Assembly (NCBI GenBank): GCA_944368775.1
Contig: CALVXB010000006.1
Coordinates: 8,196 to 72,195, forward strand
Direction: 5' to 3'
From: an uncultured Clostridia bacterium
Lineage (GTDB): Bacteria > Bacillota > Clostridia > Christensenellales > Borkfalkiaceae
DNA: 64,000 nucleotides
A program made the translations under genes and the position numbers. Under the pieces are notes generated by a model. The model had not been told where the DNA came from. It worked only from the letters and a program-made list of their open reading frames with translations, and ran no database searches. Positions 4,897 to 56,834 of the stretch are shown in pieces (positions within the stretch are counted from its first letter, which is position 1; the number at the start of each line of letters is the position of its first letter).

Positions 4897-4930
4897 TGAC
4901 TTTGTTCCGAATGGCTTTTTCATGTTTCCC

Positions 4931-7596: not shown

Positions 7597-7610
7597 AAAA
7601 AAACTCCCTC

Positions 7611-8143
7611 ACAAAATTTCTTTTGAGCTGACAAAAGAAATTTTCGTGATTTTGAGGGCTCTGCCCTCTGCGGCGCGCTTTTTAAGGGCACGCCAAAGTA
7701 TGCGCGCCGCATTCACCCGCTGAGGCGCTCACGCGCAAATAGGGGTGCGCTAACGCAGAAGCGTGGTTCTGCTTGCGCGAATATTTTAATGAATTAATTG
7801 AAAAAGCGGAAATCGCAATTTTGCCTTTTTCCCCCAATTTGCCGTGAGGCTTTTGGGAAGAGGGTGAAGCCGCGCGATTTCTTAGAAGAGCGCTCTCAAA
7901 TATCGCGCGGCGAGGGAGAAAACGCTGCTGCGTATCATAAGGGCTCCCAAAAAGTAACTCGCCGCGTTGCGGCGAGAGCTATAGCCCGCCGAACTTTTTG
8001 GGAAGAGGAGGAGCCGCCGAGCACGCCGCGCGGGCAGCCGATGGATGCCCGCGGGCAGGCAAAGGCGAGCGACGACGAGCACAGCGGTGTCTCCCTTAAA
8101 TCGGAAGATTTCGCAGGCAGCAGCCTGCCGAGAAATCTCCGAG
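7611..8143. repeat. Mosaic nested-hairpin intergenic repeat locus L1
   Basis: Contains hairpin A (7613-7644), GAGGGCTCTGCCCTC (7654-7668), the GCGCGCCGCATTCACCCGCTGAGGCGC module, hairpin G (about 7799-7850), module D (7995-8079, + orientation) and palindrome F (8098-8143). All of these recur elsewhere in the window. Confidence 0.9.
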
Positions 8144-8186
8144 CCCTACATCCTATGGAAATTTTTCTCCATCGGTGCGATTTTTC

Positions 8187-8335: not shown

Positions 8336-8369
8336 GGCGGGAGCAGGTTTTACCTGCCCTCGCCTTTTT
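8336..8369 (+). terminator. Intrinsic terminator after tRNA-Arg
   Basis: GGCGGGAGCAGGT-TTTA-ACCTGCCCTCGCC stem-loop followed by TTTTT. Confidence 0.75.
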
Positions 8370-8517: not shown

Positions 8518-9003
8518 CTCGTCGTCGCTCGCCGCCGTTAGCCCGCGGGCAGCCGTTGGCCGCCCGCGCGGCAGCTTGGCGGCGGCTCCTCCTTTTTTGT
8601 TCACAAAATTTCTTTTGAGCTGACAAAAGAAATTTTCGTGATTTGAGGGCTTTGCCCTCTGCGGCGCGCTTTTTGAGGGCACACTGTTAAAATGCGCGCC
8701 GCATTCACCCGCTGAGGCGCTTCACGCGCAAATAGGGGACGCTCCGTCAAAATTGCGATTTTGACTCGCGCGTTTATTTTTAATTAAATTTTTGCGCAAG
8801 CAAAGTCGCGCCTTTGCGCCAGCGCCCTCAATTTGCCGTTAGGCTTAAGGGGGAAAGGTGAAGCCGCCGCGCGCTATTAAAGGTGTGCACTTAAACGCGC
8901 GGCGGCGAGGAAAACCCCGCGGATAGCGCTTGCGCGTGCCCGCGGGGTTTTCTTCAAAATCGGAAGAATTTGTTTTAACAGCTTAAAACAAATTCTCCGA
9001 GCT
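8518..9003. repeat. Mosaic nested-hairpin intergenic repeat locus L2
   Basis: Module D in reverse orientation (8518-8598). Hairpin A (8605-8636) plus the B/C modules, almost identical to 7611-7745. The TTGACTCGCGCG module is present. A palindrome F variant lies at 8956-9001. The segment 8905-9001 is the reverse complement of 55938-56035. Confidence 0.9.
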
Positions 9004-9012
9004 ATTTCCGAG

Positions 9013-10110: not shown

Positions 10111-10351
10111 TGTCGTCAAAAATGGTTCCTTATGCGTTATTGGCATGCGAGAGGAGGCGCTGCGGGCGCAGCAGACCCCTTCGCTATCCAACAGTATAGC
10201 ACAATTTGCGCCGTTTGTACAGATAAAATGCGTGAAAATCACTTAAAAAAATGCCGCAACTATGCTATACTTGAAGGGCAGCGGCCGCCCGCGCGCGGGC
10301 TGCCGCACGCAAGAGACGCCCGCCCTTTTCGGGGCGGGGAAAGGGGAAGAT

Positions 10352-20340: not shown

Positions 20341-20393
20341 ATTCCTCCCCCGCTTTTGCCGCCCCGACCCGTCAAACGAAGGAGGCTACCATC

Positions 20394-21977
20394 ATGTGTT
20401 CTATTTTCTGCTGCACCGCCAAAGAGGTGGACTACGCAAAGATGCTCGAGGGCTTTTACCGCACCGTGTCGCGCGGGCCGGACATGAGCCGCGTCGAGCG
20501 CACCCCTTCCGGCTACATGGCCTTCCACCGCCTGGCCATCATGGGCCTGAATGCGGCGGGCATGCAGCCCTTTTCGATGGGCAAGGACAAGCTGGTCTGC
20601 AACGGCGAAATTTACGGCTTCCGCCCCCTCAAGCGGCAGCTCGAAGAGCGCGGCTACGTCTTTTCGTCGGACAGCGACTGCGAGATCTTGCTCCCCCTCT
20701 ACCGCGAGTATGGGCTGAAGATGTTCTCCATGCTCGACGCCGAGTTCGCCCTCGTGCTCTACGACGGGCAAAAGGACGAGTACATCGCCGCGCGCGACCC
20801 CATCGGCATCCGCCCCCTCTACTACGGCCGCCTCGCGAGCGGGGCGATCGTCTTTGCCAGCGAGCCCAAAAACCTCGTCGGGTTTGTCGAAGGGGAAATT
20901 CTGCCCTTCCCCCCGGGTTGCTACTATTATAAGGGGCGCTTTCACCGCTACTGCGACATCGCCGCCGCGGAGAGCTATCTTGCCGACGACGTCGGCGAGA
21001 TCTGCCGCAACATCCGCCAAAAGCTGATCGAGGGGGTGCGCAAGCGGCTCGACGCCGACGCGCCCGTAGGCTTTTTGCTCTCGGGCGGGCTCGACTCCTC
21101 CCTCGTGTGCGCCATCGCCGCGCGGCAGCTGGATAGGCCCATCAAAACGTTCGCCATCGGCATGGATAAAGACGCCATCGACTTAAAGTACGCGCGCATC
21201 GTCGCCGATCATATCGGCTCCGACCACACCGAGGTCATCATCACCAAAGAGGACGTCCTTTCCGCCCTCGAGCCGGTCATCGCGGCGCTGGGTACATTCG
21301 ACATCACCACCATCCGCGCCTCGATGGGCATGTACCTGCTCTGCCAAAAGATCCACGCCTGCAGCGACGTGCGCGTCCTGCTCACCGGCGAGATCTCGGA
21401 CGAGCTGTTCGGCTACAAGTACACCGACTTCGCCCCCTCCGCCGAGGCCTTCCAAAAGGAGTCGCAAAAGCGGGTGCGCGAGCTGCATATGTACGACGTA
21501 TTGCGCGCCGACCGCTGCATCTCCGTGCACAGCATGGAGGCGCGCGTGCCCTTCGGCGACCTCGACTTCGTCCGCTACGTCATGCACGCCGACCCCGCCC
21601 GCAAAATTAACACCTACGGCAAGGGCAAGTACCTTTTGCGCAAGGCGTTTGAAGAGGGCGATTGGCTGCCCGAAAGCATCCTCTGGCGGGAAAAGGCCGC
21701 CTTCTCCGACGCCGTCGGCCACTCGATGGTCGACGACCTCAAAGAGTACGCCGAGGAGCGCTACGGAGAAGATTGGAAGGAGCGCGCACGCGCCTACGCG
21801 CACGCCCGCCCCTTCACCAAAGAGAGCCTGCTCTACCGCGAAATTTTTGAAAAATTTTACCCCGGCCAGGCGGGCATGGTCAAGGCATTCTGGATGCCCA
21901 ACCCCCGCTGGGAGGGCTGTAAGGTCAACGACCCCTCCGCGCGCGTCCTCTCCAACTACGGCGACAGCGGCAAGTAG
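20394..21977 (+). CDS. asnB: Asparagine synthase (glutamine-hydrolysing)
   Basis: Start MCSIFCC gives the Ntn-amidotransferase Cys2. PP-loop motif LLSGGLDSS. AGGAGG RBS. Confidence 0.9.
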   Translation: MCSIFCCTAKEVDYAKMLEGFYRTVSRGPDMSRVERTPSGYMAFHRLAIMGLNAAGMQPFSMGKDKLVCNGEIYGFRPLKRQLEERGYVFSSDSDCEILLPLYREYGLKMFSMLDAEFALVLYDGQKDEYIAARDPIGIRPLYYGRLASGAIVFASEPKNLVGFVEGEILPFPPGCYYYKGRFHRYCDIAAAESYLADDVGEICRNIRQKLIEGVRKRLDADAPVGFLLSGGLDSSLVCAIAARQLDRPIKTFAIGMDKDAIDLKYARIVADHIGSDHTEVIITKEDVLSALEPVIAALGTFDITTIRASMGMYLLCQKIHACSDVRVLLTGEISDELFGYKYTDFAPSAEAFQKESQKRVRELHMYDVLRADRCISVHSMEARVPFGDLDFVRYVMHADPARKINTYGKGKYLLRKAFEEGDWLPESILWREKAAFSDAVGHSMVDDLKEYAEERYGEDWKERARAYAHARPFTKESLLYREIFEKFYPGQAGMVKAFWMPNPRWEGCKVNDPSARVLSNYGDSGK

Positions 21978-33330: not shown

Positions 33331-33732
33331 ATGACCGACCTCGAAATGCTCGCGCTCGCGCGGCAAAATCTCGACCCCGTCATCCGCGGCGAACACTGCG
33401 CGACGGGCTTCGTATCCGCCGTGCTCGAGGGCGCAAACGGCAAGTACTACACGGGCGTCAACATCGACCTCGCCTGCGGCCTCGGTTTTTGCGCCGAGCG
33501 CGCCGCCGCCGCGGCGATGATCGACGACGGCGAGTGCGTCGTCCGCCGCGCCGTGTGCGTGGATAAAGACGGCGCGCCCATGACCCCCTGCGGCAGCTGC
33601 CGCGAGTTTTTGATGCTGCTCTCGCCCGCCAACGCGGGGGCGGTGTTCTATTTGGGGAAAGGGAAGCGCATGACGCTCGCCCAATTTTTGCCCCTCCCCT
33701 GGGAGAACTACGGGCAGGGAGACAACGCATGA
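33331..33732 (+). CDS. Cytidine/deoxycytidylate deaminase-fold protein (CDA / blasticidin-S deaminase-like)
   Basis: Zinc motifs CAERAA and PCGSCREFL. 133 aa. The stop overlaps the next start (ATGA). Confidence 0.75.
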   Translation: MTDLEMLALARQNLDPVIRGEHCATGFVSAVLEGANGKYYTGVNIDLACGLGFCAERAAAAAMIDDGECVVRRAVCVDKDGAPMTPCGSCREFLMLLSPANAGAVFYLGKGKRMTLAQFLPLPWENYGQGDNA

Positions 33733-35537
33733 AGGAAGATAAAGAGGACAAGGCCGCCCGCGCGAAGGAAGTATTGTTCGGCGAAACCAAGCCGGCGGGC
33801 GAGGTAAAGGCGGAGGCCCGCGCCGAGGACGCCGCCCGCGCGAAGGAAGTATTGTTCGGCGAACCCAAGCAGGAAGAAGCGGCAAAGGCGGAGGCCCGCG
33901 CCGAGGACGCCGCCCGCGCAAAGGAAGTATTGTTCGGCGAACCCAAGCAGGAAGAAGCGGCAAAGGCGGAGGACCGCGCCGAGGACGCCGCCCGCGCCAA
34001 AGAGGTGCTGTTCGGTGAGCCCAAGCCGGAAGAAGCGGCAAAGCAAGGCGCCGCCCCTTCGGCGGGCGCGGACAGCGCCCCCGCGGCGGACAAGCCCGCC
34101 GACGATTTGTTTTTTGCGGGCGAGCCGCCCAAGGCCCCGCCCGCCCCGCCCGCCGCGGCTCCTAGCGCCGCGCGGAAAAAGCCGCGCGGCGGCGCGCGCG
34201 CCGTCAGGCGCGCGCTTTGGGCGGTGGCGGCCGTCCTTCTTGCGGCCGCCCTGTTTGCGGCGGGGTACTTTACCTACTACTTCACATTAGACGGCGGTCT
34301 GCGCTCGCTGCTGTGGTTCAAAGAGGTCATCGACGGGCAGTACTACGAGGACATCTCCGACGAAGACTTCTGGAACGCCGCCATCCAGGGGGTGGAGGAC
34401 GGCCTGCTCGACCGCTACTCCACCTACTACTCCCCCGCCGAGCTTGACGACACGATGGCCTCGCAGCAGGGCATCGGCATGGGGGTGGGGCTGTCCTTTT
34501 TTACGGGCACCAACAAGGTGGTTTCGGTCGCCATCGGCTCGCCCGCCTTTTTTGCGGGCGTGCAGGCGGGCATGTACGTCACCGGCGTCGCCGTGGGCGG
34601 CGGGGAGATGGAGGACACCTTCCTCGCGAACGGCTACGGCGGCTATACCTGCACCGCCGCGTCGCAGCTTGCGGGCTTTGCAGAGGGCACGCAGGTGCGG
34701 CTGCGCCTGTCGGCAACTTCCCCCGTCGACACGAGCGCGGATACGACCGGCACGGTCGACCTGACCGTGCGCACCTACAACGAGAGCTACGTCCTCTACG
34801 CGGCGGAAGGCCGCGCTTGGGCGGCGCTCTATCACGAAGATACGCGCGAGTACGTTTGGACGGACGTCAGCGAATACGTCGCCGTCGACGAGCTCGCGCA
34901 GGGGAAAGAGGCGTATTTGCAGCTGCGCCGCTTTTACGGCGCGGCGGCGGGCGAGTTCGGCCTCGCGCTCGAGCAGTTCAAAGAGGACGGCGCAGATACG
35001 CTCATCCTCGACCTGCGCAACGACGGCGGCGGCAGCCTCGACGTCATGCAGGGCATCGCCGTCTACCTGCGCCGCGACGCAAAGGCGAGCCGCGAGGAGG
35101 TGCTGCGCGCCGAGTACGGCAACGGCGCGGTGGATGTATTCTACGCCGAGGAGGACCTCTACGACGAATACCTCGCCGACGCGAACATCAAGGTGATGGC
35201 AAACGGCAACACCGCCTCCGCGTCCGAGGCGCTCATCGGCGTCATGATCTCGTACGGCACCATCGGGTTTGAAGACGTGTACATCACCGACACGGTCGGC
35301 AACGGCAGCGCCGCCACCTACGGCAAGGGCATCATGCAGACCACCTTCGTCAACCGCATCACCGGCGAGGCGGCCAAGCTGACCACCGCCCGCATCTATT
35401 GGCCCAACGGCGTGTGCATCCACGGCACGGGCATCACCACCGCGATGGGCGCCAACCCTTCGCCCGCCGCCAGCTACGGCGAGTTCGGCGACCCCGAGCT
35501 CGCCGCCCTGCTCGCCGCCCTCGCGGCAGAAAACTGA
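33729..35537 (+). CDS. S41-family (C-terminal processing) peptidase with a repetitive N-terminal region and TM anchor
   Basis: Four DAARAKEVLFGEPKQEEAAKAEARAE repeats, then a TM helix (ALWAVAAVLLAAALFAAGYF). S41 core signatures are present (LILDLRNDGGGSL, ANGNTASASEALIGV). Confidence 0.75.
   Translation: MKEDKEDKAARAKEVLFGETKPAGEVKAEARAEDAARAKEVLFGEPKQEEAAKAEARAEDAARAKEVLFGEPKQEEAAKAEDRAEDAARAKEVLFGEPKPEEAAKQGAAPSAGADSAPAADKPADDLFFAGEPPKAPPAPPAAAPSAARKKPRGGARAVRRALWAVAAVLLAAALFAAGYFTYYFTLDGGLRSLLWFKEVIDGQYYEDISDEDFWNAAIQGVEDGLLDRYSTYYSPAELDDTMASQQGIGMGVGLSFFTGTNKVVSVAIGSPAFFAGVQAGMYVTGVAVGGGEMEDTFLANGYGGYTCTAASQLAGFAEGTQVRLRLSATSPVDTSADTTGTVDLTVRTYNESYVLYAAEGRAWAALYHEDTREYVWTDVSEYVAVDELAQGKEAYLQLRRFYGAAAGEFGLALEQFKEDGADTLILDLRNDGGGSLDVMQGIAVYLRRDAKASREEVLRAEYGNGAVDVFYAEEDLYDEYLADANIKVMANGNTASASEALIGVMISYGTIGFEDVYITDTVGNGSAATYGKGIMQTTFVNRITGEAAKLTTARIYWPNGVCIHGTGITTAMGANPSPAASYGEFGDPELAALLAALAAEN
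33753..34058 (+). repeat. 4 x 78-bp in-frame tandem repeat inside the S41 peptidase gene
   Basis: GCCGCCCGCG(C/A)... repeat anchors fall at 33753, 33831, 33909 and 33987, a period of exactly 78 nt. Confidence 0.9.
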
Positions 35538-36489: not shown

Positions 36490-36499
36490 AAAAATTGTT

Positions 36500-36860
36500 C
36501 ACACTTTTTCTTTTGAGCTGTCAAAAGAAAAAGTCGTGATTTGAGGGCTCTGCCCTCTGCGGCGCGCGCGTCGTCGCTTGCCTTTGCTTGCCCGCCTTTT
36601 GCTTTTGGCAAAAGGCGCGGCGTGCGCGGCAGCTCCTCCTTTTCCCAAAAAGTTCTTCGATACTTTTTGGGAACCCTTTGTAGGGGCACACCTTTTATAT
36701 GCGCGCCGCATTCACCCGCTGAGGCGCTTGACGCGCAAATTGGGGTGCGCAGCGGAAAAGCGCGGTTTTCCTCGCGCGAGTATTTTATAAAATAAATAAG
36801 GTTCCCGAAAATCGCAGCGGTGCGCAGCGTCGCGAGATTTTCGGGAGTCCTGTTATTTTT
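36500..36860. repeat. Mosaic nested-hairpin intergenic repeat locus L3
   Basis: Hairpin A variant 2 (36504-36533), GAGGGCTCTGCCCTC, module D in reverse orientation (36569-36651), stem CCCAAAAAGT/ACTTTTTGGG, the GCGCGCCGCATTCACCCGCTGAGGCGC module, and hairpin E (about 36801-36848). Confidence 0.9.
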
Positions 36861-36868
36861 GCGCGGCT

Positions 36869-38014
36869 TCACCTTTCCTCCGCCACGGCGCGCACCGCCC
36901 GCAAAAAGGCGTCTGCCTCGCCCTCGGTGTTGAATTCGGACAGCGACGCGCGCACCAGCCCCTCGCGCGCGGTGCCGAGCGCCGCGTGCAGGCGGGGCGC
37001 GCAATGCAGCCCGCCGCGCACGCAGATGCCGTACTCCTCCGAAAGCCTCCCCGCAAACAGTTCGGAGGAGAGGGTCTCGCAGCGGAAGGATACGATGCCG
37101 CAGGGGTTGGGGCGGGAGTACACCGCGATGCCGCCGATGCGCCGCAGGCCGCCGCACAGCCGTTCGGTCAGCGCCAGCAGGCGGCTCGCGATGCGCTCGC
37201 GGCGGGGCAGCAGGTACAGCGCGCCCTCGGCGAGGGAGGCCGCCGCCGGGCAGGAGAGGGTGCCCGCCTCCAGCCGCTCGGGGTAAAAGGCGGGCATATC
37301 CTCGGCGGCGCTCTCCACCCCCGTTCCGCCGTAGAGGAGGGGGTAGAGGCTGACCCGCTCTGAAAGCAGCAGCGCCCCGCTCCCCTGGATGCCGTGCATC
37401 CCCTTGTGCCCCGCCACCGCCAAGGCGTCGATCCCCGCCCCCTTCATGTCGACGGGCAGATGCCCGCACGCCTGCGCGCCGTCGCACACGGTCAAAACGC
37501 GCGGCGGCAGCAGCGCGCGCACCGCGGCGGGGTCGATCGCCTCGCCCGTCACGTTGGAGGCGAGGGTAAACACCGCCGCAACCGTATCTTCGTTTGCGGC
37601 CTCGGCGATGTGCCGCGGCGTCACCCGCCCGCCCTCCCCCTGCACGACGGTCAGGCGGATGTACCCCTCGCGCGCGAGAAAGAGCAGCGGCCGCAGCGCG
37701 GCGTTGTGCTCGAGCGCCGTGCTCACGACGTGCGGCTTGATCTTCGGCGGCCGCGGCGGGCGCAGCAGCCCGAAGATGGCCATGTTCAGCGCCTGCGTGC
37801 AGCCGGCGGTGAGGATCACCCGCTCCGCGCTCTCCCCGCCCAAAAAGCGGCACAGCAGGCGGCGGCAGCGCTGCACCTCCTCCGCCAGGGCGAGGGCGAG
37901 CGCGTGCCCGCTCCGCCCGGGGTTGCCGCATACGCCTTCGATGCAGGCGCGCACCGCCCGCACCACGCAATCGGGCTTGCGCCCGCCCGTCGCCGCGTTG
38001 TCAAAATAGATCAT
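36869..38014 (-). CDS. Class V aminotransferase (cysteine desulfurase / selenocysteine lyase-like)
   Basis: MIYFDNAATGGRKP start. PLP lysine motif AVAGHKGMHG. Active-site region VRGGLHCAP. GGGAGGG RBS. Confidence 0.8.
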   Translation of the reverse strand: MIYFDNAATGGRKPDCVVRAVRACIEGVCGNPGRSGHALALALAEEVQRCRRLLCRFLGGESAERVILTAGCTQALNMAIFGLLRPPRPPKIKPHVVSTALEHNAALRPLLFLAREGYIRLTVVQGEGGRVTPRHIAEAANEDTVAAVFTLASNVTGEAIDPAAVRALLPPRVLTVCDGAQACGHLPVDMKGAGIDALAVAGHKGMHGIQGSGALLLSERVSLYPLLYGGTGVESAAEDMPAFYPERLEAGTLSCPAAASLAEGALYLLPRRERIASRLLALTERLCGGLRRIGGIAVYSRPNPCGIVSFRCETLSSELFAGRLSEEYGICVRGGLHCAPRLHAALGTAREGLVRASLSEFNTEGEADAFLRAVRAVAEER

Positions 38015-39321: not shown

Positions 39322-40596
39322 ATGGCATCTCTCTTTACGGATAAGGTCAAGATCACCGTCAAGGCGGGCGACGGCGGCGACGGCATGAACTCCTTCAAAA
39401 GTTTCAAGGGTTTCGCCAACGGCGGGCCGGACGGCGGCGACGGCGGCAAGGGGGGCGACGTGTACGTCGTCGGCGATAAAGACAAGGGCGACCTCGTCGA
39501 CTTCCGCTTCGGCTCTCGCTTCAAGGCGGGAGACGGCGAGCGGGGCGGCACCAACAACTGCTTCGGCAAGGGGGGAGAAGACGTCGTCATCGCCCTGCCC
39601 CTCGGCACCCTCGTGCGCGACGCGGAGACGGGCAAGCTGCTGTGCGACGTGTACGCCGACGGCGAAAAGCACCTCATCGCGCGCGGCGGCAGGGGGGGCA
39701 AGGGCAACGTGCGCTTCACCACCGCCCGCCGCCACGCCCCGCACTTCGCGCAAAAGGGGCAAAAGACGCAGCCGCACGCCCTCATCCTCGAGCTCAAGGT
39801 CATCGCCGACGTCGGCATCGTCGGCTTCCCCAACGTGGGCAAAAGCACGCTGCTCTCCAAGATCAGCGGCGCAAAGCCCAAAATTGCGGGCTATCACTTT
39901 ACCACCCTCTCGCCCAACCTCGGCGTCGTGCGCCGCTACGACAAGTCCTTCGTCGCGGCGGATATCCCGGGGCTGATCGAGGGCGCGGCGCAGGGCGCGG
40001 GGCTGGGGCACGACTTTTTGCGCCACATCGAGCGCACCCGCATGCTCGTGCACGTCGTCGACATCTCCGGCATGGAGGGGCGCGACCCCGTCGGGGACTT
40101 CGCCCGCATCAACGCAGAGCTCGCCGAATACAGCCAAAAGCTCGCCGCCCTGCCGCAGATCGTCGCCCTCAACAAGTGCGACGTGTTCGGCGCGGAGGAG
40201 AATTTGACGCGCTTTGCCGAAACATATCCGGAGTACCCGACCTTCCCCATCACCGCGCTCACCGGCGCGGGCACCAAAGAGCTGCTCGACGCCGTGTTCG
40301 AGGTGCTCGAAACGCTGCCGCCCGCCGAGCCCATCCCCGCCGACGAGTTCGAGTACGACCTGCCCGACGTCAACGAGTTCTTTATCGAAAAGGACGAGGC
40401 CGAGCGGGTGTGGTACGTCACGGGCGGGCTGGTGGATATGCTCGAGCGCAACGTCGTGCTGTCCGATCCCGACTCGATGGCGTACTTCCAAAAGGTGCTC
40501 AAAGATAAGGGCGTCATCCGCGCCCTGCGCGAACAGGGCGTCCAAGAAGACGACACCGTCGTCGTGGGGGGCGTGGAGTTTTCGTACAAAGAATAG
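39322..40596 (+). CDS. obg: GTPase Obg/CgtA
   Basis: MASLFTDKVKITVKAGDGGDG Obg fold with Gly-rich repeats. G1 GFPNVGKST, G3 DIPGLIEGA. C-terminal OCT-like domain. Confidence 0.95.
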   Translation: MASLFTDKVKITVKAGDGGDGMNSFKSFKGFANGGPDGGDGGKGGDVYVVGDKDKGDLVDFRFGSRFKAGDGERGGTNNCFGKGGEDVVIALPLGTLVRDAETGKLLCDVYADGEKHLIARGGRGGKGNVRFTTARRHAPHFAQKGQKTQPHALILELKVIADVGIVGFPNVGKSTLLSKISGAKPKIAGYHFTTLSPNLGVVRRYDKSFVAADIPGLIEGAAQGAGLGHDFLRHIERTRMLVHVVDISGMEGRDPVGDFARINAELAEYSQKLAALPQIVALNKCDVFGAEENLTRFAETYPEYPTFPITALTGAGTKELLDAVFEVLETLPPAEPIPADEFEYDLPDVNEFFIEKDEAERVWYVTGGLVDMLERNVVLSDPDSMAYFQKVLKDKGVIRALREQGVQEDDTVVVGGVEFSYKE

Positions 40597-40599
40597 GGG

Positions 40600-41090
40600 C
40601 TCGCGAAATTTGTTTTGAGCTGTCAAAACAAATTTCTGCGATTTTGAGGGACAACCCGCCGTTCGCAGCTATCGCTGCTCGGCGGCCGGTTTTCTCTCTT
40701 TGCGGCATATTTTAAGGGCACACCTTTGATAAATGCCGCAAATTCACTCTTTCCTCATAAGCGCTCACGCGCAAATTGAGTTGCGCAGCGGAAAAGTGTG
40801 ATTTTCCTCGCGCGTGTATTTTAAGAAATATAAAGGGTTCCCAGAAATCGCAGCGGTGCGGAGCGTCGCGAGATTTTTGGGAAGAGGAGGAGCCGCCGAG
40901 CACGCCGAGCCTTTTGCCAACAGCAAAAGGCTGGCAAGCAAAGGCGTGCGACGACGAGCTAACGCAGAAGCGTGGTTCTGCTTGCGCAAGTAATTTAAGA
41001 AAAGTTAGAGGGCTGCGCTCTCGTTGAGCGCTTGCGCGCAAATTGAGTGCGCTCATCAAAATTACGATTTTGACTCGCGCGAGTAATTCA
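40600..41090. repeat. Mosaic nested-hairpin intergenic repeat locus L4
   Basis: Hairpin A variant 3 (40606-40635). The segment 40640-40725 is the reverse complement of 56700-56785. Hairpin E plus module D in + orientation (40838-40958). The AACGCAGAAGCGTGGTTCTGCTTGCGC module is shared with 7752-7778. The TTGACTCGCGCG module lies at 41070. Confidence 0.9.
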
Positions 41091-41122
41091 AAAATAAAAT
41101 ATTATAGAGAGAGAGTTTTTGA

Positions 41123-41416
41123 ATGTTAACAAGTAAACAGAGAAGCAACTTAAAGAGCATCGCGGCGAATTTGGAACCCGTTGCGCAGGTGGGCAAGGCG
41201 GGCATTGGCGAAAATATGATCAAGTCGCTGTCCGACGCGCTCGAGGCGCGCGAGCTGATCAAGGTGAACATCCTCACCAACGCCGAAGAGGACGCAAAAA
41301 CGACGGGCGCACAGCTCGCAGAGGCGCTGGGCGCCGACTGCGTCGCCGTCATCGGCCGCAAGGCCATCTTTTACCGCCGCTCGTCGCGTAAAAATTTCCC
41401 GCATATCCAATTTTAA
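41123..41416 (+). CDS. yhbY: YhbY-family (CRM domain) RNA-binding protein
   Basis: MLTSKQRSNLKSIAANLEPVAQVGKAGIGENMIKSLSDALEARELIKV is a typical CRS1/YhbY domain. Confidence 0.85.
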   Translation: MLTSKQRSNLKSIAANLEPVAQVGKAGIGENMIKSLSDALEARELIKVNILTNAEEDAKTTGAQLAEALGADCVAVIGRKAIFYRRSSRKNFPHIQF

Positions 41417-42622: not shown

Positions 42623-42674
42623 GAGGGCGAAATCAATTCCGCGAGGTTTTCGCGAGCCTTTCTCATTAAAATAA

Positions 42675-43110
42675 TTGAAAAAGGCAAAATCACACTTTTG
42701 CCTTTTTCCCCCAATTTGCCGTGAGGCTCACGGAAGAGGTGAAAGCGGCGCGCATAAAAAAAGGCGTGCCCTTAAAGAGCGCGCCGCTGAGGGGAAAACC
42801 GTTCGGGTTTCCCCTCAAATCGCAGAAAATCGCAGCCGTCAGCACGGCGAGATTTTCGCGAGCAGAATTTTTGAAAAAGGCAAAATCACACTTTTGCCTT
42901 TTTCCCCCAATTTGCCGTGAGGCTCACGGAAGAGGTGAAAGCGGCGCGCATAAAAAAAGGCGTGCCCTTAAAGAGCGCGCCGCTGAGGGGAAAACCGTTC
43001 GGGTTTCCCCTCAAATCGCAGAAAATCGCAGCCGTCAGCACGGCGAGATTTTCGCGAGCTGAATTTTTGAAAAAGCAAAAATCACACTTTTGCCTTTTCC
43101 CCCATTTATT
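42675..43110. repeat. Mosaic repeat locus L5: 196-bp unit in about 2.2 tandem copies
   Basis: Units start at 42675, 42871 and 43067 (TTGAAAAAGGCAAAATCACACTTTTGCC...). The first two copies are essentially identical. The duplicated peptide strings in the track ORFs at 42721 and 42917 show the same 196-nt offset. Confidence 0.95.
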
Positions 43111-44002
43111 TTCCAAAGAGTTTAAGAAGTATGCCCCCCACCAGCAGTACACCGCCCGCGATGAGGTAGTAGAGGGGGAAGATCGCCCACAGCGAAAAGA
43201 GCAGCAGCGCCCCGCCAGAGAGGGCGTAGCCCCGCCACGCGCCGCGCAAAGGCCGCAGCGTTTTCCGTTTTTTGGCGGGCGGGGGCGGTGCGAGCAGGGG
43301 GGATGGCACCATGCCCGCCGCGCGCACCAGCGCGTACACCGCGTCCGCGCCCCAAAGCCGTATGCCGAATGCCGCGGCGAGCTTTTCCGCCTCCGGCGTG
43401 AACGCCCCGCCCATCGCGCCGCGCCTGCCTTCCGCGCGCACCGCCGCGCGCAGCTCGTCCGCCGTCACCTTGTCCAGGCGGAACAGCAAAAACCACCGCG
43501 TATCGCCCGCGCGCACCGTGCCGTCCGCTTCGGCCTCTGCCGCGCAGCCCGCCCCGCCCGCAGCTTGCGGGGCGGGGGAGGGGTTTTGCGCGCCGCGCGG
43601 CCCTTCTTCATCCTCGTCCGCCGCACGGGCGGCTTTTTTGTTTTGGGGGGAAGAAGTGCCCCGCCCGCCAACTTTCTGTTCCTCCGCGCCCGGAGAGAAG
43701 CCGGGCGCGGCGCGCAGGCTGGCGGCGATGAGGCGGGCGTTGCTCGCGGGCGGCTGCATGGCGAGGTGAAAGGCGAGCGCTGCGGCCTCGCGCCGCTCCT
43801 CCTCCGCCGCCCTCCTTTTGCGGCGGCGGGCGGCGAGCAGGCGGTGGGCGGGCAGCGAAAGGGCGGCGGCAGCGGCGAGCGCCGCTGCCGCCGCCCCCCA
43901 AGCCGAGGGTATGTAAAAGCGCAAAATGCAAAAGCCGAGCGCGCCCGCAGCGGCAAACAGCGCGATTGTATCCGACCACAGCGGCAGATCGAACTTTTTC
44001 AT
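43106..44002 (-). CDS. Hypothetical membrane protein (298 aa)
   Basis: ATG at 44002 after GGAGGATAC. N-terminal and C-terminal TM helices flank a soluble core and a low-complexity insert. No family assigned. Confidence 0.5.
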   Translation of the reverse strand: MKKFDLPLWSDTIALFAAAGALGFCILRFYIPSAWGAAAAALAAAAALSLPAHRLLAARRRKRRAAEEERREAAALAFHLAMQPPASNARLIAASLRAAPGFSPGAEEQKVGGRGTSSPQNKKAARAADEDEEGPRGAQNPSPAPQAAGGAGCAAEAEADGTVRAGDTRWFLLFRLDKVTADELRAAVRAEGRRGAMGGAFTPEAEKLAAAFGIRLWGADAVYALVRAAGMVPSPLLAPPPPAKKRKTLRPLRGAWRGYALSGGALLLFSLWAIFPLYYLIAGGVLLVGGILLKLFGK

Positions 44003-44348
44003 GTATCCTCCTTGCGGCGGGCTTTGCCTGTGCCGCCGCTTTCGGCGGGCGCTTTGCCCGCGCCGCTCGTTTTCGGCGGGCGCTTTGCCCCTTCGCCCTT
44101 GCGGCAGCGTTTCGCGCGCCTCGTTCCGCCGGGAGCTGTACGATCGGAGCGGGCGGCGGGGCGTCTGCGCCGCGCGGCCTGCCCGCACGGCGGCTCGCGG
44201 CGGGGAGCGGCGCTCGCTCCGCGGCGATCCTTCGCAGATTTTTGTCAAAAAATCGCTTTTTCAAACGTTGCGCGCGCGCGCAACTTATGTTATACTAAAA
44301 GAAAAAGGAAAAACGGGGCGGACAAACCGTTCCGCGGAGGATCGCCGC

Positions 44349-45482
44349 ATGAAGATCGCAATTTTCGGCGGGTCGTTCGACCCCGTCCACGCCGAACACG
44401 TCAGCATCGCCCGCGCCGCGCGCGAAAAGCTGGGGGCGGACAGGGTCGTCGTCGTGCCCGCGTTTTTGCCGCCGCACAAGGCGGAGCGCCACCTCGCGCC
44501 CGCAGCCGCGCGGCTGGAGATGGCCCGCCTCGCCTTTGCCGGCATCCCCGGCTGCGAGGTCAGCCCGTACGAGATCAACGCGGGCGGCACCAGCTACACC
44601 GTGCGCACGCTGCGCAGATTCCGCGAGCTGTACCCGCAAGACGAGCTGTTTTTGCTCGTCGGCGCGGATATGCTGCGCGATTTTTACACATGGAAGCAGC
44701 CGGAGGACATCCTCTCGATGGCGACGCTCGTCGCCTGCGGGCGGGAGGGGGACCCCGCCGACTTCAAAAAGGAGCAAAAGCGCTTCACCGCGCGCTTCGG
44801 CGTGCCCTTTCTCCCCCTCGGATACACGGGCGGGCCCGTCTCGTCGACGGAGGTGCGCGTGCTGTGCGCCTTCGGCGAGGACGCGCGCGGGTTTCTGCCC
44901 GCCGAGGTCGCCGACTACATCGACGCGAACGAGCTGTACCGCGTGGGGCCGGTGCGCGCCGCGCTCGGCTACCTGACCCCCGCCCGCCGCAAGCACAGCC
45001 TGCGCGTGGCGCTGACGGCGGCGGGGCGCGCGGCGCAGGTCGGCGTGTCCGAGTACGACGCCGTGCTCGCCGCCGGCCTGCACGACTGCGCCAAAAACCT
45101 CCCGCCCGACGCGCCCGCGCTCGCGGGCTTTTGCCCGCCCGACGATGTTCCCGCGCCCGTGCTGCACCAATACGCGGGGGCGTACGTCGCCGAGCACACC
45201 CTCGGCGTCACCGACCAAAACGTGCTCGACGCCATCCGCTACCACACCTCCGGCCGCCCCGCGATGAGCGCGCTCGAAAAGCTCATCTTTCTTGCGGACA
45301 TGCTCGAGCCGGGGCGCGACTTCCCCGGCATCCGCAGGCTGCGCAAGCTGTTTGCCGAAAGCCTCGACGCCTGTATGTACCGCAGCCTCAAAGAGGAGAT
45401 CAAACACTTAAAAAAGGGGAAGGGGAGCATCTACCCGCTCACCTTCCGCGCCTACGAATATTATAAAGAACACCGCAAATAA
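44349..45482 (+). CDS. nadD: Nicotinate-nucleotide adenylyltransferase NadD fused to a YqeK-type HD-domain hydrolase
   Basis: N-terminal IFGGSFDPVHAEH (HxGH-type nucleotidyltransferase motif) and SSTEVR. C-terminal HD domain (HSLRVALTAA...AAGLHDCAK...IRYHTSG...LIFLADMLEP). One uninterrupted 377-aa ORF. Confidence 0.85.
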   Translation: MKIAIFGGSFDPVHAEHVSIARAAREKLGADRVVVVPAFLPPHKAERHLAPAAARLEMARLAFAGIPGCEVSPYEINAGGTSYTVRTLRRFRELYPQDELFLLVGADMLRDFYTWKQPEDILSMATLVACGREGDPADFKKEQKRFTARFGVPFLPLGYTGGPVSSTEVRVLCAFGEDARGFLPAEVADYIDANELYRVGPVRAALGYLTPARRKHSLRVALTAAGRAAQVGVSEYDAVLAAGLHDCAKNLPPDAPALAGFCPPDDVPAPVLHQYAGAYVAEHTLGVTDQNVLDAIRYHTSGRPAMSALEKLIFLADMLEPGRDFPGIRRLRKLFAESLDACMYRSLKEEIKHLKKGKGSIYPLTFRAYEYYKEHRK

Positions 45483-48714: not shown

Positions 48715-48838
48715 ACAAAAGGAAGTTGAAGCACCTCCAAGCTCTAAGCTCTGAACTCTAAAAACGCTCATTCCCGTTATAATAACCTACCGATATGTCA
48801 AAAACGGCGGCTCGCACAGGGCTGCCGTTTTTGTCTGC
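48715..48838 (+). ncRNA. Candidate small RNA (promoter-to-terminator unit, about 125 nt; about 170 nt if the second terminator is used)
   Basis: Bounded by the consensus promoter at 48680-48708 and the hairpin/T-tract at about 48800-48838. It contains only an 11-codon TTG mini-ORF with poor RBS spacing. Confidence 0.35.
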
Positions 48839-48890
48839 CCTTATGTCAAAAACGGCGGCTCGCACAGGGCTGCCGTTTTTGTCTGCCCTT
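48795..48890 (+). terminator. Two tandem 48-bp copies of a terminator-like hairpin
   Basis: ATGTCAAAAACGGCGGCTCGCACAGGGCTGCCGTTTTTGTCTGCCCTT occurs twice back to back (48795-48842 and 48843-48890). Each copy is an A-tract, a 9-bp stem with one mismatch, and a T-tract. Confidence 0.75.
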
Positions 48891-49046: not shown

Positions 49047-49073
49047 TTAGCACTTGGGTTAAGAGAGTGCTAA
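49047..49073 (+). promoter_or_regulatory. CIRCE operator (HrcA binding site)
   Basis: TTAGCACTT-GGGTTAAGA-GAGTGCTAA compared with the consensus TTAGCACTC-N9-GAGTGCTAA. It lies immediately downstream of the -10 element. Confidence 0.92.
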
Positions 49074-50173: not shown

Positions 50174-50725
50174 ATGAACGAAGAGATCAAAGAGGCCGCA
50201 GCGCAGCAAGAGGACGCCGCACAGCCGGCCGAGCAGCCCGCACAGCAGGCGGAACAGGCCGCACAAGAGAGCGCGCAGGCGCAGCTCGAAGAGGCGCTCG
50301 CCGCCGCCAAGGCGGAGGCAGCCGGCTATAAAGACAAGTGGATGCGCGCCGCCGCCGAGTTCGATAACTTCCGCAAGCGCAACGAGCAGACCCGCCGCAA
50401 CGCCTATTTGGACGGCAAGGCAGACGTGCTGTTGAAGATCTTTCCCGTCGGCGACAACCTCGAGCGCGCCCTCGCCACCTGCGACGAGCAGACCAAAAAG
50501 GGGATCGAAATGGTGCTGCGCGCCTTCAACAAGCTGCTCGAAGAGGAGGGCATCGAGGCGATCGACCCCAAAGACGAGGAGTTCGACCCGACCTACTGCG
50601 AGGCGATCATGAGCGAGCCCGCCGCCGAGGGCGTCGAGCCCGGCTACGTCAAGGAGGTCTTCCTCAAGGGCTACAAGCGGGGCGAAAAGGTGCTGCGGTT
50701 CGCGCAGGTGAAAGTAACAACATGA
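50174..50725 (+). CDS. grpE: Nucleotide exchange factor GrpE
   Basis: YKDKWMRAAAEFDNFRKRNEQ ... GYKRGEKVLRFAQVKV are typical GrpE motifs. Confidence 0.93.
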   Translation: MNEEIKEAAAQQEDAAQPAEQPAQQAEQAAQESAQAQLEEALAAAKAEAAGYKDKWMRAAAEFDNFRKRNEQTRRNAYLDGKADVLLKIFPVGDNLERALATCDEQTKKGIEMVLRAFNKLLEEEGIEAIDPKDEEFDPTYCEAIMSEPAAEGVEPGYVKEVFLKGYKRGEKVLRFAQVKVTT

Positions 50726-50995
50726 TTCACACTTTTTCTTTTGAGCTGTCAAAAGAAAAAGTCGTGATCTGAGGGCTCTGCCCTCTGCGGCGCGCTTTTT
50801 AAGGGCACACCAAAGTATGCGCGCCGCATTCACCCGCTGAGGCGCTCACGCGCAAATTGAGTGCGCTCATCAAAAGTGTGATTTTGACTCGCGCATTTGT
50901 TTTTATATAATAAATGCCGCAAATTCACTCTTTCCTCGTAAGCCATTCGGCAAATTGAGGGAAAAAGGCAAAAGCGTGGTTTTGCCTTTTTCAAG
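50726..50995. repeat. Mosaic nested-hairpin repeat locus L6, inserted between grpE and dnaK
   Basis: Starts at the first base after the grpE stop. Hairpin A variant 2 (50732-50761), then the B/C modules, then the TTGACTCGCGC module carrying TTGACT-16-TATAAT (50884-50911), then hairpin G (about 50958-50990). Confidence 0.9.
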
Positions 50996-51164
50996 AGGTT
51001 TAATTAGAGGCGTTCGAAAGTTTTTCTGTAAAAGATTTTCGAAAAAGTTTCAAAAGACAAAGACGCGAGATCGCGTTCGGATATACATTCAAAAAACCTT
51101 AAAAAAACAAATTAAAAAAGAATCAAGGCCCGAAAGGTTTTTTCGGGTTCCGATAAAGGAGTGA

Positions 51165-54554: not shown

Positions 54555-55937
54555 ATGCAAAGGACTACGATACGAGAGATATATGCGCGAGCGGCGGCGC
54601 TGGGCGGGCAAACGGTCGCCCTGTGCGGCTGGGTCCGCACCCTGCGCGATTCAAAGGCGTTCGGCTTTATCGAGCTGAACGACGGCAGCTGCTTCAAAAA
54701 CTGCCAGGTCGTGTTCGAGCGGGATACGCTCGCCAACTACGACGAGATCGCCCGCCAAAACGTGGGCGCGAGCCTTGTGGTGGAGGGCACCCTCGTGCTC
54801 ACCCCGCAAAACCGCCAGCCTTTCGAGGTCAAGGCGACCGCCGTGTCCGTGATGGGCGCGTCCTCGCCCGACTACCCGCTGCAAAAAAAGCGGCATTCGA
54901 TGGAGTTTCTGCGCGAGATCGCCTACCTGCGCCCGCGCACCAACACCTTCGGCGCGGTGTTCCGCATCCGCAGCGAGGCGGCGTTCGCCATCCACAAGTT
55001 CTTCAACGACCGCGGCTTTGTGTATGTACACACGCCCATCATCACCGGCAGCGACTGCGAGGGCGCGGGCGCGATGTTCCAGGTGACGACGCTCGACCTC
55101 GACAAGATCAAGGGCGAAGTCGACTATAAAAAAGATTTCTTCGGCAAAAAGGCGAGCCTGACCGTCTCCGGCCAGCTCAACGTCGAGCCCTTCGCGATGG
55201 CGTTTGCCGACGTGTATACCTTCGGCCCCACCTTCCGCGCCGAGCGCTCGAACACCACCCGCCACGCGGCGGAGTTCTGGATGATCGAGCCGGAGATGTC
55301 CTTCTGCGACCTCGCGGGGGATATGGACGTCGCCGAGGCGATGGTCAAGTTCGTCATCGATTACGTCATGGAGCGCTGCCCCGACGAGATCGCCTTCCTC
55401 AATAATTTCGTCGACAAGGGTCTCGTCGAGCGGCTGCAAAACGTGTCGGGCAGCGAGTTCGTCCGCCTCACCTATACCGAGGCGATCGGTATCCTCGAAA
55501 AGGTGAAAGACAAGTTCGAGTTCCCCGTTTATTGGGGGTGCGACCTGCAGAGCGAGCACGAGCGGTACCTGACCGAGCAGGTGTATAAAAAGCCCGTCTT
55601 CCTCACCGATTACCCCAAGGAGATCAAGGCCTTTTATATGCGCCTCAACGACGACGGCAAGACGGTCGCCGCGGCAGACCTGCTTGTGCCGGGCATCGGC
55701 GAGCTGATCGGCGGCTCGCAGCGCGAAGAGCGCGAGGACGTCCTGCTCGCGCGCATGAAGGAGCTCGGCCTCGACCCCGCCGACTACGAGTTTTACCTTA
55801 AATTGCGCCGCTACGGCGGCACCGTGCACGCCGGCTTCGGCCTCGGGTTCGAGCGGATGATCATGTACCTTACGGGCATCTCGAACATCCGCGACGTGCT
55901 GCCCTATCCGAGAACGGTGGGGAACTTAGAATATTAA
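54555..55937 (+). CDS. asnS: Asparagine--tRNA ligase
   Basis: ATG at 54555, 6 nt after GGGAGGA. Anticodon-binding OB fold ([23 protein letters not shown]). Class II motifs ([38 protein letters not shown]). Confidence 0.93.
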
Positions 55938-56822
55938 GCTCGGAGATTTCTCGGCGAGCTGACGCCTGCGAAATCTTCCGATTTGAAGACAACCCCGCGG
56001 GCACGCGCGGGGCGCCGGCCGCGGGGTTTTCCTCATCGTCGCGCGTTTAGGTGCACACCTTCGTCGTCGCACGCCTTTGCTTGCCCGCCTTTTGCTTATT
56101 GGCAAAAGGCGCGGCTTGCGCGGCGGCTCCTCCTCTTCCCAAAAATCTCGCGTCGCTGCGCTCTGCTGTGATTTTCGGGAGCCCTGTTTTTTCGCTCGCC
56201 TTCGCTTGCCCGTGGGCATCCATTGGCTGCCCGCGCGGCTTGCTCGGCGGCTCCTCCTCTTCCCAAAAATCTCGCGTCGCTGCGCTCTGCTGCGATTTTC
56301 GGGAGCCCTGTTATTTTTCGCGCGGCTGCACCCTCTTCCCGGAAGCCTTCCGGTAAATTGGGAAAAAAGCAAAAAGTGTCATTTTTGCTTTTTCAGAAGT
56401 TTAAGAATTGTATTTTAGCGCGGCGTTGCCGCTTTTTCGAGAAAATTTAATTAAAAATACTCGCGCAAGCTCGTCGTCGCTCGCCTTTGCTTGCCAGCCT
56501 TTTGCTAAAAGCAAAAGGCTCGGCTTGCAAGGCGGCTCCTCCTCTTCCCAAAAATCTCGCGACGCTTCGCACCGCTGCGATTTTCGGGAACCCTATTTTT
56601 ATTAAATTTTTGCGCAAGGAAAATCACACTTTTCCGCCAGCGCACTGTATTTGCCGTTAGGCTTTTGCAGAAAGAGTGAATTTGCGCGACTTCTTAATGG
56701 CGTGCCCTTCATTGTCGCGCAAAGAGAGAAAACCGGCCGCAGAGCAGCGATAGCTGCGAACGGCGGGTTGTCTATAAAATCGGAAGATTTCGCAGGCAGC
56801 AGCCTGCCGAGAAATCTCCGAG
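55938..56822. repeat. Mosaic nested-hairpin repeat locus L7 (0.9-kb array between asnS and plsX)
   Basis: Starts at the base after the asnS stop and ends 12 nt before the plsX ATG. Palindrome F lies at both ends (55938-55984 and 56776-56822). Three reverse-orientation copies of module D plus hairpin E are present (D at 56061-56145, 56192-56269 and 56470-56554). Hairpin G lies at about 56358-56395. The segment 56700-56785 is the reverse complement of 40640-40725. Confidence 0.92.
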
Positions 56823-56834
56823 GGAGATTTTTTT

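Follow-up and report, generated by a model that had tools for sequence, protein, structure and literature searches.

Several kinds of intergenic repeat that fold into hairpins have been described in bacteria, and some of them influence the genes beside which they lie. REP hairpins lend stability to the mRNA upstream of them and affect translation when they lie within ~15 nt of a stop codon; IHF, gyrase and DNA polymerase I bind to BIMEs. Mycobacterial interspersed repetitive units (MIRUs) are direct tandem repeats of 46–101 bp with small open reading frames (ORFs) coupled to their neighbors, Correia elements (NEMIS) have 26-bp terminal inverted repeats and a TA duplication, and ERIC is a single 127-bp imperfect palindrome. 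In attC sites and the ends of IS200/IS605 elements, structure takes precedence over sequence, with Watson-Crick stems, conserved extrahelical bases, and loop and flank motifs. The BOX elements of Streptococcus pneumoniae, which number 125 in a genome of 39.5% GC, are 67–637 bp long and are built as boxA-boxB(n)-boxC, with boxA pairing with boxC; they have terminal inverted repeats and target-site duplications, are co-transcribed, and are thought to affect neighboring genes (Croucher et al. 2011; PMC3049150). Here we describe arrays of intergenic repeats in a 64-kb window (the whole stretch of DNA analyzed) from a host of ~66% GC in the Borkfalkia clade (Christensenellales). We conclude that the arrays consist of two undescribed non-coding structured repeat elements specific to this clade, unit 1 and unit 2.

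The original prediction was of an unnamed, BOX/REP-like mosaic family filling seven intergenic regions, and the repeats are indeed non-coding, hairpin-rich, intergenic, multi-copy and present in related genomes. Self-BLAST of the seven regions against the whole window confined the repeats to 7609–8144, 8601–8994, 36498–36873, 40606–41081, 42672–43103, 50726–50994 and 55938–56822, ~3.5 kb in total, in agreement with the regions predicted, and a repeat finder recovered the same direct and inverted families. Module cores of 21–29 nt occurred 4–6 times, compared with 0.00 expected from shuffles. A profile search recovered all seven predicted copies of the module called D, at 7939–8079, 8518–8609 (partial), 36567–36679, 40830–40959, 56060–56189, 56189–56313 and 56469–56598. 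Palindrome F, said to cap the largest array, between asnS and plsX, was found at both of its ends (55939–55984 and 56777–56822, 91% complementary), again at 8081–8143, and as a stem variant at 8956–9001. The inverted segment that had been reported corresponds to 40643–40704 and 56718–56779 (94% complementary), and an inverted-repeat search and parsing of the arrays showed that the entire region 40595–40960 is an inverted copy of 56468–56827. The nested hairpin CCCAAAAAGT/ACTTTTTGGG was likewise recovered, with an 8-nt loop at 36642–36673 and a long nested insert at ~7945–8006. The arrays are thus composite, multi-copy repeats as predicted; the free shuffling of modules that was also proposed did not hold, and internal order is fixed in two elements.

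Nor are the modules peculiar to this window, as an assembly artifact would be, since independent contigs and related Candidatus Borkfalkia genomes carry them. Over plsX and the right part of the largest array, the window matches six metagenome contigs from other samples at 100% identity; each of these contigs begins within the core of module D or module G, as would be expected if short-read assembly failed on a repeat.

Unit 1 is 190–240 nt long and has five hairpin domains in the constant order A-B-C-E-K, as revealed by alignment of the array starts and by profile search. The profile search found 29 full-length copies in the window and the Borkfalkia loci and a further 79 in metagenome loci, and a covariance model (CM), built from an alignment carrying the five-helix structure, gave 162 matches in 645 kb. 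Domain A is a hairpin of 17–19 bp: its base is TC..GA, its loop is GCTG, and its 3' arm carries a bulged C or T; in the consensus of 150 copies it spans 40–50 nt, with the same TC..GA base and a gtTCac 5' flank. Palindrome F is this domain on the opposite strand, and the same module opens most arrays. Domain B is a GAGG..CCTC hairpin that occurs in short, medium and long size classes, domain C has a 10-bp stem and a loop of ~22 nt containing AAGGGCAC, domain E opens with an invariant TTCAC, and domain K is rich in A and forms a hairpin with a GYGYGR loop and an outer stem of either GCGC/GCGC or GAAA/TTTC. The invariant single-stranded motifs are the GCTG loop, AAGGGCAC, TTCAC, GCAAAT and AAAAGYGYGRTTTT, and the upper stem of A exists in 65 different versions among 108 copies. 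The GC content of unit 1 is 0.42–0.64, mostly 0.45–0.57, whatever that of the host (66% in the window, 45–60% in relatives), and the units are therefore AT-rich islands in the window and not in low-GC relatives. Unit 1 is dense: there are ~13 full or split copies in the 64 kb of the window and ~0.2 copies/kb in the metagenome loci beyond the seeded copy, which extrapolates to ~200 copies per Mb if this density holds genome-wide.

Unit 2 is shorter (117–146 nt; 28 full-length copies by profile search) and joins module D to a CCCAAAAA...TTTTYGGG hairpin, giving a layout of one hairpin, the invariant tract CGGCGGCTCCTCCTCTTCCCAAAAA, and a second hairpin. Long tracts of it are invariant (TCGTCGTCGCTCGCC, CGGCGGCTCCTCCTCTTCCCAAAAA and TTTTYGGGAGCCCTGT), and its apical hairpins are exchangeable from copy to copy. 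Unit 2 sits beside unit 1 or within the loops of unit 1 hairpins, where it follows the 5' arm of C in at least 9 copies and GGGCACRCCTT in the C loop in at least 4; other copies lie in the B loop, in E, or adjoining K. Its orientation relative to unit 1 is constant in most nested cases. The C stem of interrupted copies retains 10/10 pairs in some and has a truncated 5' arm in many.

Some loci of relatives (labeled here with L-numbers) place unit 2 in other surroundings. In L018 (~800–1010) its neighbor is the 3' part of a tRNA-like sequence, and an inverted duplicate of this tRNA segment flanks it. In the B. faecavium loci L021, L030 (~1900–2020), L009, L011 and L027 it is embedded in another composite, with a kept left flank ..TGTCAYYYYG and right flank ..GAGTGGAGAAATCTTGCGCG, neither of which is part of unit 1; these flanks suggest further undescribed modules. 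We rejected a small protein encoded by module D, in which a strong reverse-strand Shine-Dalgarno-like GGAGGAG has no conserved start codon downstream and the varying length of the apical hairpin shifts the reading frame.

Unit 1 paralogs are only 60–88% identical, yet ~95–99% of their stem positions pair owing to changes on both sides, and it is therefore the fold that is maintained. RNAalifold predicted 31 pairs from the 29 copies, of which 27 showed compensatory changes; with the five-helix structure, 94.4% of the stem cells in these copies pair, compared with 70.6% after shuffling and 39–54% when the partner was slid. Results from 148 distinct copies, in an alignment that was fitted to the covariance model and so leans towards structure, were similar (94.7% pairing, versus 68.2% shuffled and at most 59% slid), with changes on both sides in 38 of 39 pairs and 1410 double-change cells where 444 were expected; MAFFT-based counts agree. 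Folding z-scores of single copies are about -6. Between the members of one ortholog pair, 36% of the unpaired columns differ, yet 37/39 pairs are identical, and in a second ortholog pair the whole upper A stem has been swapped, with 9 pairing-preserving double changes and 1 broken pair. A single-stranded fold is maintained, and the data do not separate RNA from DNA.

Placement relative to genes is also regular; the counts are approximate, as genes in the relatives' loci were called by a simple codon-position GC rule. Among 86 gene-adjacent A ends, 60 follow the 3' end of a co-oriented gene and 26 abut a gene start and its ribosome-binding site (RBS), and ten A ends lie more than 150 nt from a gene. 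A same-strand ORF of at least 100 codons ends no more than 60 nt upstream in 52 copies, and in 43 of these its stop codon ends 1–11 nt short of the TC base of hairpin A, with a mode of 5–6 nt. In the window, the arrays that had been predicted to start near stop codons begin 1–10 nt past the stops of four ORFs: grpE, obg, asnS and the one that ends at 36489. Array contexts are tandem in 32 cases, convergent in 9 and divergent in 1, and among the full units in tandem contexts 27 point the same way as the genes and 9 do not. Arrays interrupt the dnaK operon, between grpE and dnaK in the window and between dnaK and dnaJ in L074. The outward-facing hairpin at array ends is A in 96 instances versus K in 55. 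Placement near gene ends and co-orientation suggest that the elements are co-transcribed with their neighbors.

The reading that we tentatively prefer, with slightly less than even confidence in it as a whole, is that of a lineage-specific, REP/BOX-like system that tunes the flanking cistrons. The elements would be long-lived intergenic DNA that spreads rarely, spreading or changing via duplication, segmental gene conversion or some enzyme, and they would be transcribed together with adjoining genes. As RNA they would form stable stem-loop blocks in 3' untranslated, intercistronic and some 5' untranslated regions. Such blocks may hinder 3'-to-5' exonucleases and, because the hairpins lie within the ribosome footprint of the stop codon, may also hinder the terminating ribosome, and the outcome would be a tuning of the stability and translation of the flanking cistrons.

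The hairpins do not have the form of intrinsic terminators, and we rejected this function since no U tract directly follows A or K: the A+T-rich stems of A are followed by GATTTGAGG, and K by 2–5 other bases and only then a short T run. The number of terminator-like sites within arrays was not clearly above shuffles (7 versus 3.7, 4 versus 1.0, and 5 versus 3.1), and canonical terminator-like hairpins were found elsewhere, at 8341–8359 and 56420–56440. A terminator or promoter cassette was rejected as well, as consensus scans showed no clear enrichment in the arrays. One sigma-70-type promoter match, TTGACT-16 nt-TATAAT (11/12), lies at 50884–50911 in the K domain between grpE and dnaK; the motif is not conserved in other K domains, and it could represent a repeat-borne internal dnaK promoter.

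Several observations weigh against the REP/BOX-like reading. The stems are nearly all Watson-Crick, with one-side-changed counts of 0–6 per pair in the main helices, and helices A, C and K have few G-U pairs, which cluster at two fixed positions, on the forward strand only. Both strands fold alike (-77.6 versus -77.5 kcal/mol in one copy), and the strand asymmetry across 108 copies is marginal, with a mean difference of -1.4 kcal/mol under RNA parameters and +1.0 under DNA parameters. This symmetry fits DNA-level hairpins or palindrome-correcting mutation at least as well as RNA-level selection. Approximately one quarter to one third of the copies are opposed to the neighboring gene, and unit 2 occurs either way round with respect to the genes that flank it; replication-strand bias or purging from promoter regions could account for part of the orientation bias. 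Comparison of their ends revealed no terminal inverted repeats in unit 1 or unit 2, and no transposase was found among the partial data, ~1 Mb searched with Y1 transposase queries in what is a weak test. Co-transcription and any effect on mRNA are, moreover, steps that we infer.

The main rival explanation takes up this symmetry and proposes selfish, non-autonomous DNA that moves as folded single strands. The elements would be mobilized by a hairpin-recognizing enzyme encoded elsewhere in the genome, either a HUH/Y1 transposase (RAYT or IS200/IS605 kind) or a different recombinase; the hairpins, bulged base and conserved loops would be its recognition features, and effects on genes would be incidental. 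We regard this as doubtful overall. It explains the Watson-Crick-only stems well, along with the conserved bulges, internal loops and loop motifs and the equal folding of both strands, a pattern that characterizes sites recognized as hairpins of DNA, such as REP, IS200/IS605 ends and attC. Some of the conserved features are asymmetric: the pyrimidine bulged on the 3' arm, the TC/TGC internal loop that one class of A hairpin has, and the C-T mismatch of long B stems. These argue against a purely neutral palindrome-perfecting process.

The same asymmetric bulges and internal loops indicate a folded single strand, not duplex DNA, and so count against a DNA-level host function, in which the arrays would serve as sites for gyrase or a nucleoid protein, as at BIMEs, or as cruciform supercoil buffers between transcription units. 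Strand-symmetric, Watson-Crick-only palindromes would suit such a role, as would the AT-rich junctions between inverted unit pairs, the regular placement between transcription units, and the steadiness of unit 1 GC content across hosts of differing GC. However, no candidate binding protein or motif was identified, and neither the gene-orientation bias nor the exact stop spacing is expected of a purely architectural element. We consider this explanation very improbable; it and an RNA-protein system are the less likely of the readings.

In the latter, the arrays would be a multi-copy structured RNA with a dedicated partner, either a specific protein or the ribosome, and could act as a processing or localization signal. 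In a variant of this idea, an exposed CUCCUCCUCUUCCC tract in unit 2 (anti-Shine-Dalgarno-like, with AAGAGGAGGAG on the other strand) would pair with ribosome-binding sites or 16S rRNA. Five covarying helices and invariant single-stranded motifs are shared by relatives of 45–67% GC, stems are kept while unpaired columns diverge between orthologs, co-orientation with transcription is 3:1, and the G-U pairs at two fixed positions belong to the forward strand only. The core of unit 2 is invariant across species and is predicted to be unpaired between its two hairpins; however, this invariance is partly ascertainment, because the loci were fetched with that 21-mer, and unit 2 relatives found without this bias have diverged. 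G-U pairs are also much rarer than is usual for RNA families, the sign of the marginal folding-energy asymmetry flips with DNA parameters, many copies run antisense to the genes around them, and unit 2 has no fixed orientation to these. Searches of the window with Rfam 15 at the gathering threshold found only a T-box and a tRNA, and permissive scans of the arrays gave chance-level matches far under thresholds (miRNA models, CbSR2 and CcsR1, the last with 17 bits versus a threshold of 65.3). The repeats themselves matched no Rfam family at either setting, consistent with the prediction that the elements are unnamed. We judge the dedicated-partner explanation improbable. A more far-reaching proposal, which we think unlikely, is that unit 1 is an undescribed, highly multi-copy structured element (some hundreds per genome, by extrapolation from ~0.2 copies/kb) read at gene ends by a dedicated host factor, as RNA or as single-stranded DNA; selection for this reading would preserve its five-hairpin fold and invariant loop motifs. 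It would then be an "end-of-gene cassette" used throughout the clade, through which the termination of translation is coupled to the fate of the mRNA, with unit 2 as a loop-nesting element that carries an anti-Shine-Dalgarno-like tract.

The distribution of the elements among relatives bears on their age. The genus Borkfalkia is a member of the Christensenellales, and the genome of its type strain has a GC content of 51.7%. The 21-nt core of module D had exact matches in 26 loci of the genome collection, many of them at contig ends, and these loci belong to metagenome-assembled genomes (MAGs) of Candidatus Borkfalkia (B. faecavium, B. avicola and B. faecigallinarum) or to Clostridiales/Firmicutes MAGs; several are syntenic with the window, with 76–98% protein identity. 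A motif scan of metagenomes yielded 120 loci, 53 of which carry genuine unit 1 copies. The metagenome loci range from 45 to 67% GC and mostly lack unit 2, and their housekeeping proteins are 69–93% identical to those of the window, indicating that unit 1 is spread across a Borkfalkia-like clade. Arrays recur at asnS/plsX in L008, L012, L044, L075 and L099 and at obg/yhbY in L015, L030 and L077, where flanking proteins are 78–98% identical to the window's. In L074, three units lie between dnaK and dnaJ, a gap that is free of them in the window. A copy is closest to its ortholog (96% and 83% identity), and paralogs are less similar to each other. By these comparisons the copies are old and vertically inherited. 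Literature searches on repeats in Borkfalkia and the Christensenellales found nothing on such elements, and the paper describing the genus Borkfalkia makes no mention of repeats.

Turnover, judged from the sequences of orthologous arrays, proceeds by whole modules. The asnS/plsX array of the window contains two unit 2 copies that are both missing at the same site in L008 (~97% protein identity), and L008 has a 23-nt K hairpin core that is absent from the same array in the window. Segmental exchange is also evident, with a stretch of 88 nt at 99% identity shared by paralogs that are 80% identical overall, and a composite of 365 nt occurs at two loci in opposite orientations.

Some of these observations would be expected if the elements were selfish DNA moving as folded single strands: the presence or absence of unit 2 at an orthologous site, its position in hairpin loops in a mostly constant orientation to unit 1, the copying of the 365-nt composite, inverted, to a second locus, the density of ~0.2 unit 1 copies/kb, and the breaking of short-read assemblies at the repeats. 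However, orthologous copies have lasted across species, the copies are old and divergent, and no master sequence is apparent among the many upper A stems and paralogs of low identity. There is no GTAG-type guide in the consensus of 150 unit 1 copies, and terminal inverted repeats are missing: the unit 1 ends (gtTCac... and ...cttgcgCnannnntt) are neither mutual inverted repeats nor complementary, nor do those of unit 2 (TCGTCGTCGC... and ...GGGAGCCCTGTT) form inverted repeats with each other. No target-site duplication is discernible; the flanks of the 28 unit 2 copies share no common direct repeat, and the single filled-versus-empty comparison (window versus L008) involves a loop that has diverged around the insert. 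In a tblastn search with sequences of IS200 TnpA and E. coli YafM, a weak test, nothing was below E = 0.06 in the window and loci (~1 Mb). A phage vector was rejected for now, as IMG/VR viral contigs contained neither the unit 2 core nor a unit 1 motif. The stop spacing of 1–11 nt and the 3:1 orientation bias would require an extra assumption, and it is these two features, together with the divergent copies and missing master, that selfish DNA explains less well.

Returning to the window, the gene contexts of the arrays include a glycosyltransferase gene/tRNA-Arg, obg/yhbY, hrcA-grpE-array-dnaK and asnS-array-plsX-rnc-smc, with the identities of grpE, obg, asnS and plsX confirmed by Pfam. The seven arrays are composed as follows.

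Array 1, a forward unit 1 followed by a reverse unit 1 whose B loop contains unit 2:
7603..7794, + strand: unit 1 (nhmmer 181 bits, model positions 3–204; CM 182.8 bits), with its A hairpin abutting the start codon and RBS of a glycosyltransferase gene, 6535–7596 (-) (Pfam).
7784..8148, - strand: unit 1 with a unit 2 insert (7936–8081, -) in the B-hairpin loop; its A hairpin, 8098–8143 (palindrome F), faces tRNA-Arg 8255–8331.

Array 2, a partial unit 2 followed by a forward and then a reverse unit 1:
8518..8609, + strand: partial unit 2 (D part, model positions 3–87).
8595..8787, + strand: unit 1 (CM 169 bits).
8778..9006, - strand: unit 1 (CM 202 bits), with its A hairpin, 8956–9001, immediately past the stop codon of gene 9013–10242 (-), which runs in the same direction; its ortholog is L013 2791–3020, with the upper A stem swapped.

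Array 3, unit 1 forward with unit 2 in the C loop, then a lone G hairpin:
36493..36793, + strand: unit 1, after the stop codon 36487–36489, cleanly split at model positions 88/89 (C loop) by unit 2 at 36565–36681, with the C stem retaining 10/10 Watson-Crick pairs.
36794..36855, no strand assigned: lone G-type hairpin CCCGAAAATC...GATTTTCGGG, adjoining the stop codon of an aminotransferase gene, 36869–38014 (-) (Pfam).

Array 4, unit 1 forward, unit 2, K hairpin, partial E-K:
40595..40829, + strand: unit 1 (CM 209 bits), ~7 nt past the obg stop codon (40594–40596).
40830..40960, - strand: unit 2, forming with 40595–40829 the inverted copy of 56468–56827.
40958..41096, + strand: K hairpin and partial E-K of unit 1, ending ~30 nt short of yhbY (41123–41416) (Pfam).

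Array 5:
42661..43104, - strand: two tandem unit 1 copies (period 196 nt, 98% identical) and an extra K hairpin.

Array 6, unit 1 forward and partial E-K:
50721..50910, + strand: unit 1, directly past the grpE stop codon (50723–50725) within the hrcA-grpE-dnaK cluster.
50909..51003, + strand: partial unit 1 (E-K).

Array 7, unit 1 forward with two unit 2 copies in the C loop, spacer, unit 2, unit 1 reverse:
55934..56410, + strand: unit 1, 1 nt past the asnS stop codon, with unit 2 copies at 56058–56189 and 56183–56313 in its C loop.
56411..56467, + strand: non-repeat central spacer with a terminator-like hairpin and T run (56420–56440), kept in L008.
56468..56598, + strand: third unit 2 (140 bits).
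56596..56827, - strand: unit 1 (CM 187 bits), 96% identical to its L008 ortholog, with its A hairpin, 56777–56822 (palindrome F), abutting the plsX RBS and start codon (56835).

At 56812–56830, the 3' arm of this last A hairpin, AAATCTCC, has two possible pairing partners, its own 5' arm and the Shine-Dalgarno region of plsX, GGAGATTT, and these alternatives are two mutually exclusive structures at the plsX ribosome-binding site.

The predicted likeness to BOX and REP is borne out in the way the elements would work, and not in several features that define REP, BOX or miniature inverted-repeat transposable elements (MITEs). Like REP and BIME sequences (the REPIN-RAYT system), the units are extragenic, hairpin-forming and multi-copy, and form mosaics with some inverted pairs. 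Location at gene 3' ends and inside operons, with rarity between divergent genes, is a REP property that we tested for and found here, and vertical inheritance, long life and a position often few nt from stop codons are shared as well. In contrast to the REP palindrome of 20–40 nt, however, unit 1 has 190–240 nt and five distinct hairpin domains. The REP 5' GT(A/G)G motif is absent from its consensus, and there is no cloud of near-identical copies around a master, as unit 1 copies are 60–88% identical with many compensated stems. The inverted doublet of similar REPs that makes up a REPIN is not the main form here. Within loci, single units (13 in one orientation and 10 in the other) are commoner than plain inverted pairs, of which there are 2, besides a few mixed forms, and the two halves of the window's inverted pairs carry different stems. 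A giant palindrome of unit 1 forward and reverse was accordingly rejected as the basic unit. In addition, no RAYT gene was found in the partial data (the weak tblastn test of ~1 Mb with YafM and TnpA), and the hosts of REP are enterobacteria and pseudomonads, whereas this host is a Firmicute.

With BOX, the elements share a modular mosaic structure in a Firmicute with internal modules of variable number, a similar size range, extensive predicted secondary structure, slow turnover, and a position that allows co-transcription; in both, the rest of the fold stays intact whether an inner module is missing or present several times. The domains of unit 1, however, each fold on themselves, with no complementary unit ends and no closure of the boxA-boxC type, its stems covary widely, and no terminal inverted repeats were seen. 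Given a pneumococcal genome of ~2.2 Mb, the unit density of ~0.2/kb is roughly 3–4 times that of BOX. The hosts also differ in GC content (66% versus 39.5%). Neither unit 1 nor unit 2 has the terminal inverted repeats of MITEs.

Other systems share single traits. MIRUs are likewise intergenic, located in operons, oriented with the genes, and fitted tightly against neighboring stop or start codons, but the present units are non-coding hairpin chains with no conserved reading frame. The attC sites and IS200/IS605 ends are the nearest parallel for keeping structure and not sequence; however, no integrase, cassette ORFs or TnpA/TnpB genes adjoin the arrays, and unit 1 has five ordered hairpins, compared with one or two, and is chromosomal, dispersed and tied to gene ends. 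Correia and ERIC elements are abundant, intergenic, co-transcribed long hairpins that can change mRNA processing and the expression of neighbors, but neither has the five-domain order, the nested second elements or the pervasive compensated stem variation.

The window has additional features outside the arrays. Its first 4700 nt are a low-GC island (36–48%, versus ~66% elsewhere) with an HsdM type I methylase gene at 872–2500 (-), and this island looks horizontally acquired. Dense 9-nt periodicity with higher-order tandem repeats of 27, 45 and 81 nt, GCCGGTGGG-like, occupies 4938–5414, within the overlapping ORFs 4933–5898 (+) and 4920–5501 (-), which had no Pfam hit; this region may encode a collagen-like or other triplet-repeat protein. 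At 33753–34043, a 78-nt tandem repeat (3.7 copies, 91% matches) is within ORF 33729–35537, and therefore represents an in-frame protein repeat of 26 residues. A T-box leader at 20062–20310 (104 bits) is located upstream of the ORF listed as 20232–21977; the leader overlaps this mechanically called start, and the true start codon is therefore probably further downstream. Upstream of hrcA is a CIRCE operator at 49047–49073 (TTAGCACTT-N9-GAGTGCTAA, 1 mismatch), just preceded by a perfect 48-nt tandem duplication at 48794–48890 that contains a terminator-like hairpin. Downstream of array 5, a single reading frame of high third-position GC extends over ~43200–45482 (listed as 43272–45482) and is interrupted by a stop codon at 43767–43769; it may be a pseudogene, two genes, or the result of a sequencing error.

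If the density in the window holds genome-wide, several percent of this small gut-bacterial genome would consist of two undescribed structured repeats, a repeat load that, if true, would be among the highest in bacteria. The repeats explain the fragmentation of Borkfalkia short-read assemblies and are potential markers for strain typing. Their placement 1–11 nt past stop codons offers a handle on how downstream hairpins affect termination and mRNA decay in Clostridia. The family unites a high copy number, as in mobile DNA, with old, divergent orthologous copies and compensated stems, as in functional RNAs. It could therefore show whether covariation arises without RNA-level selection, through palindrome correction or gene conversion, a question that bears on the calling of candidate structured RNAs from comparative data.

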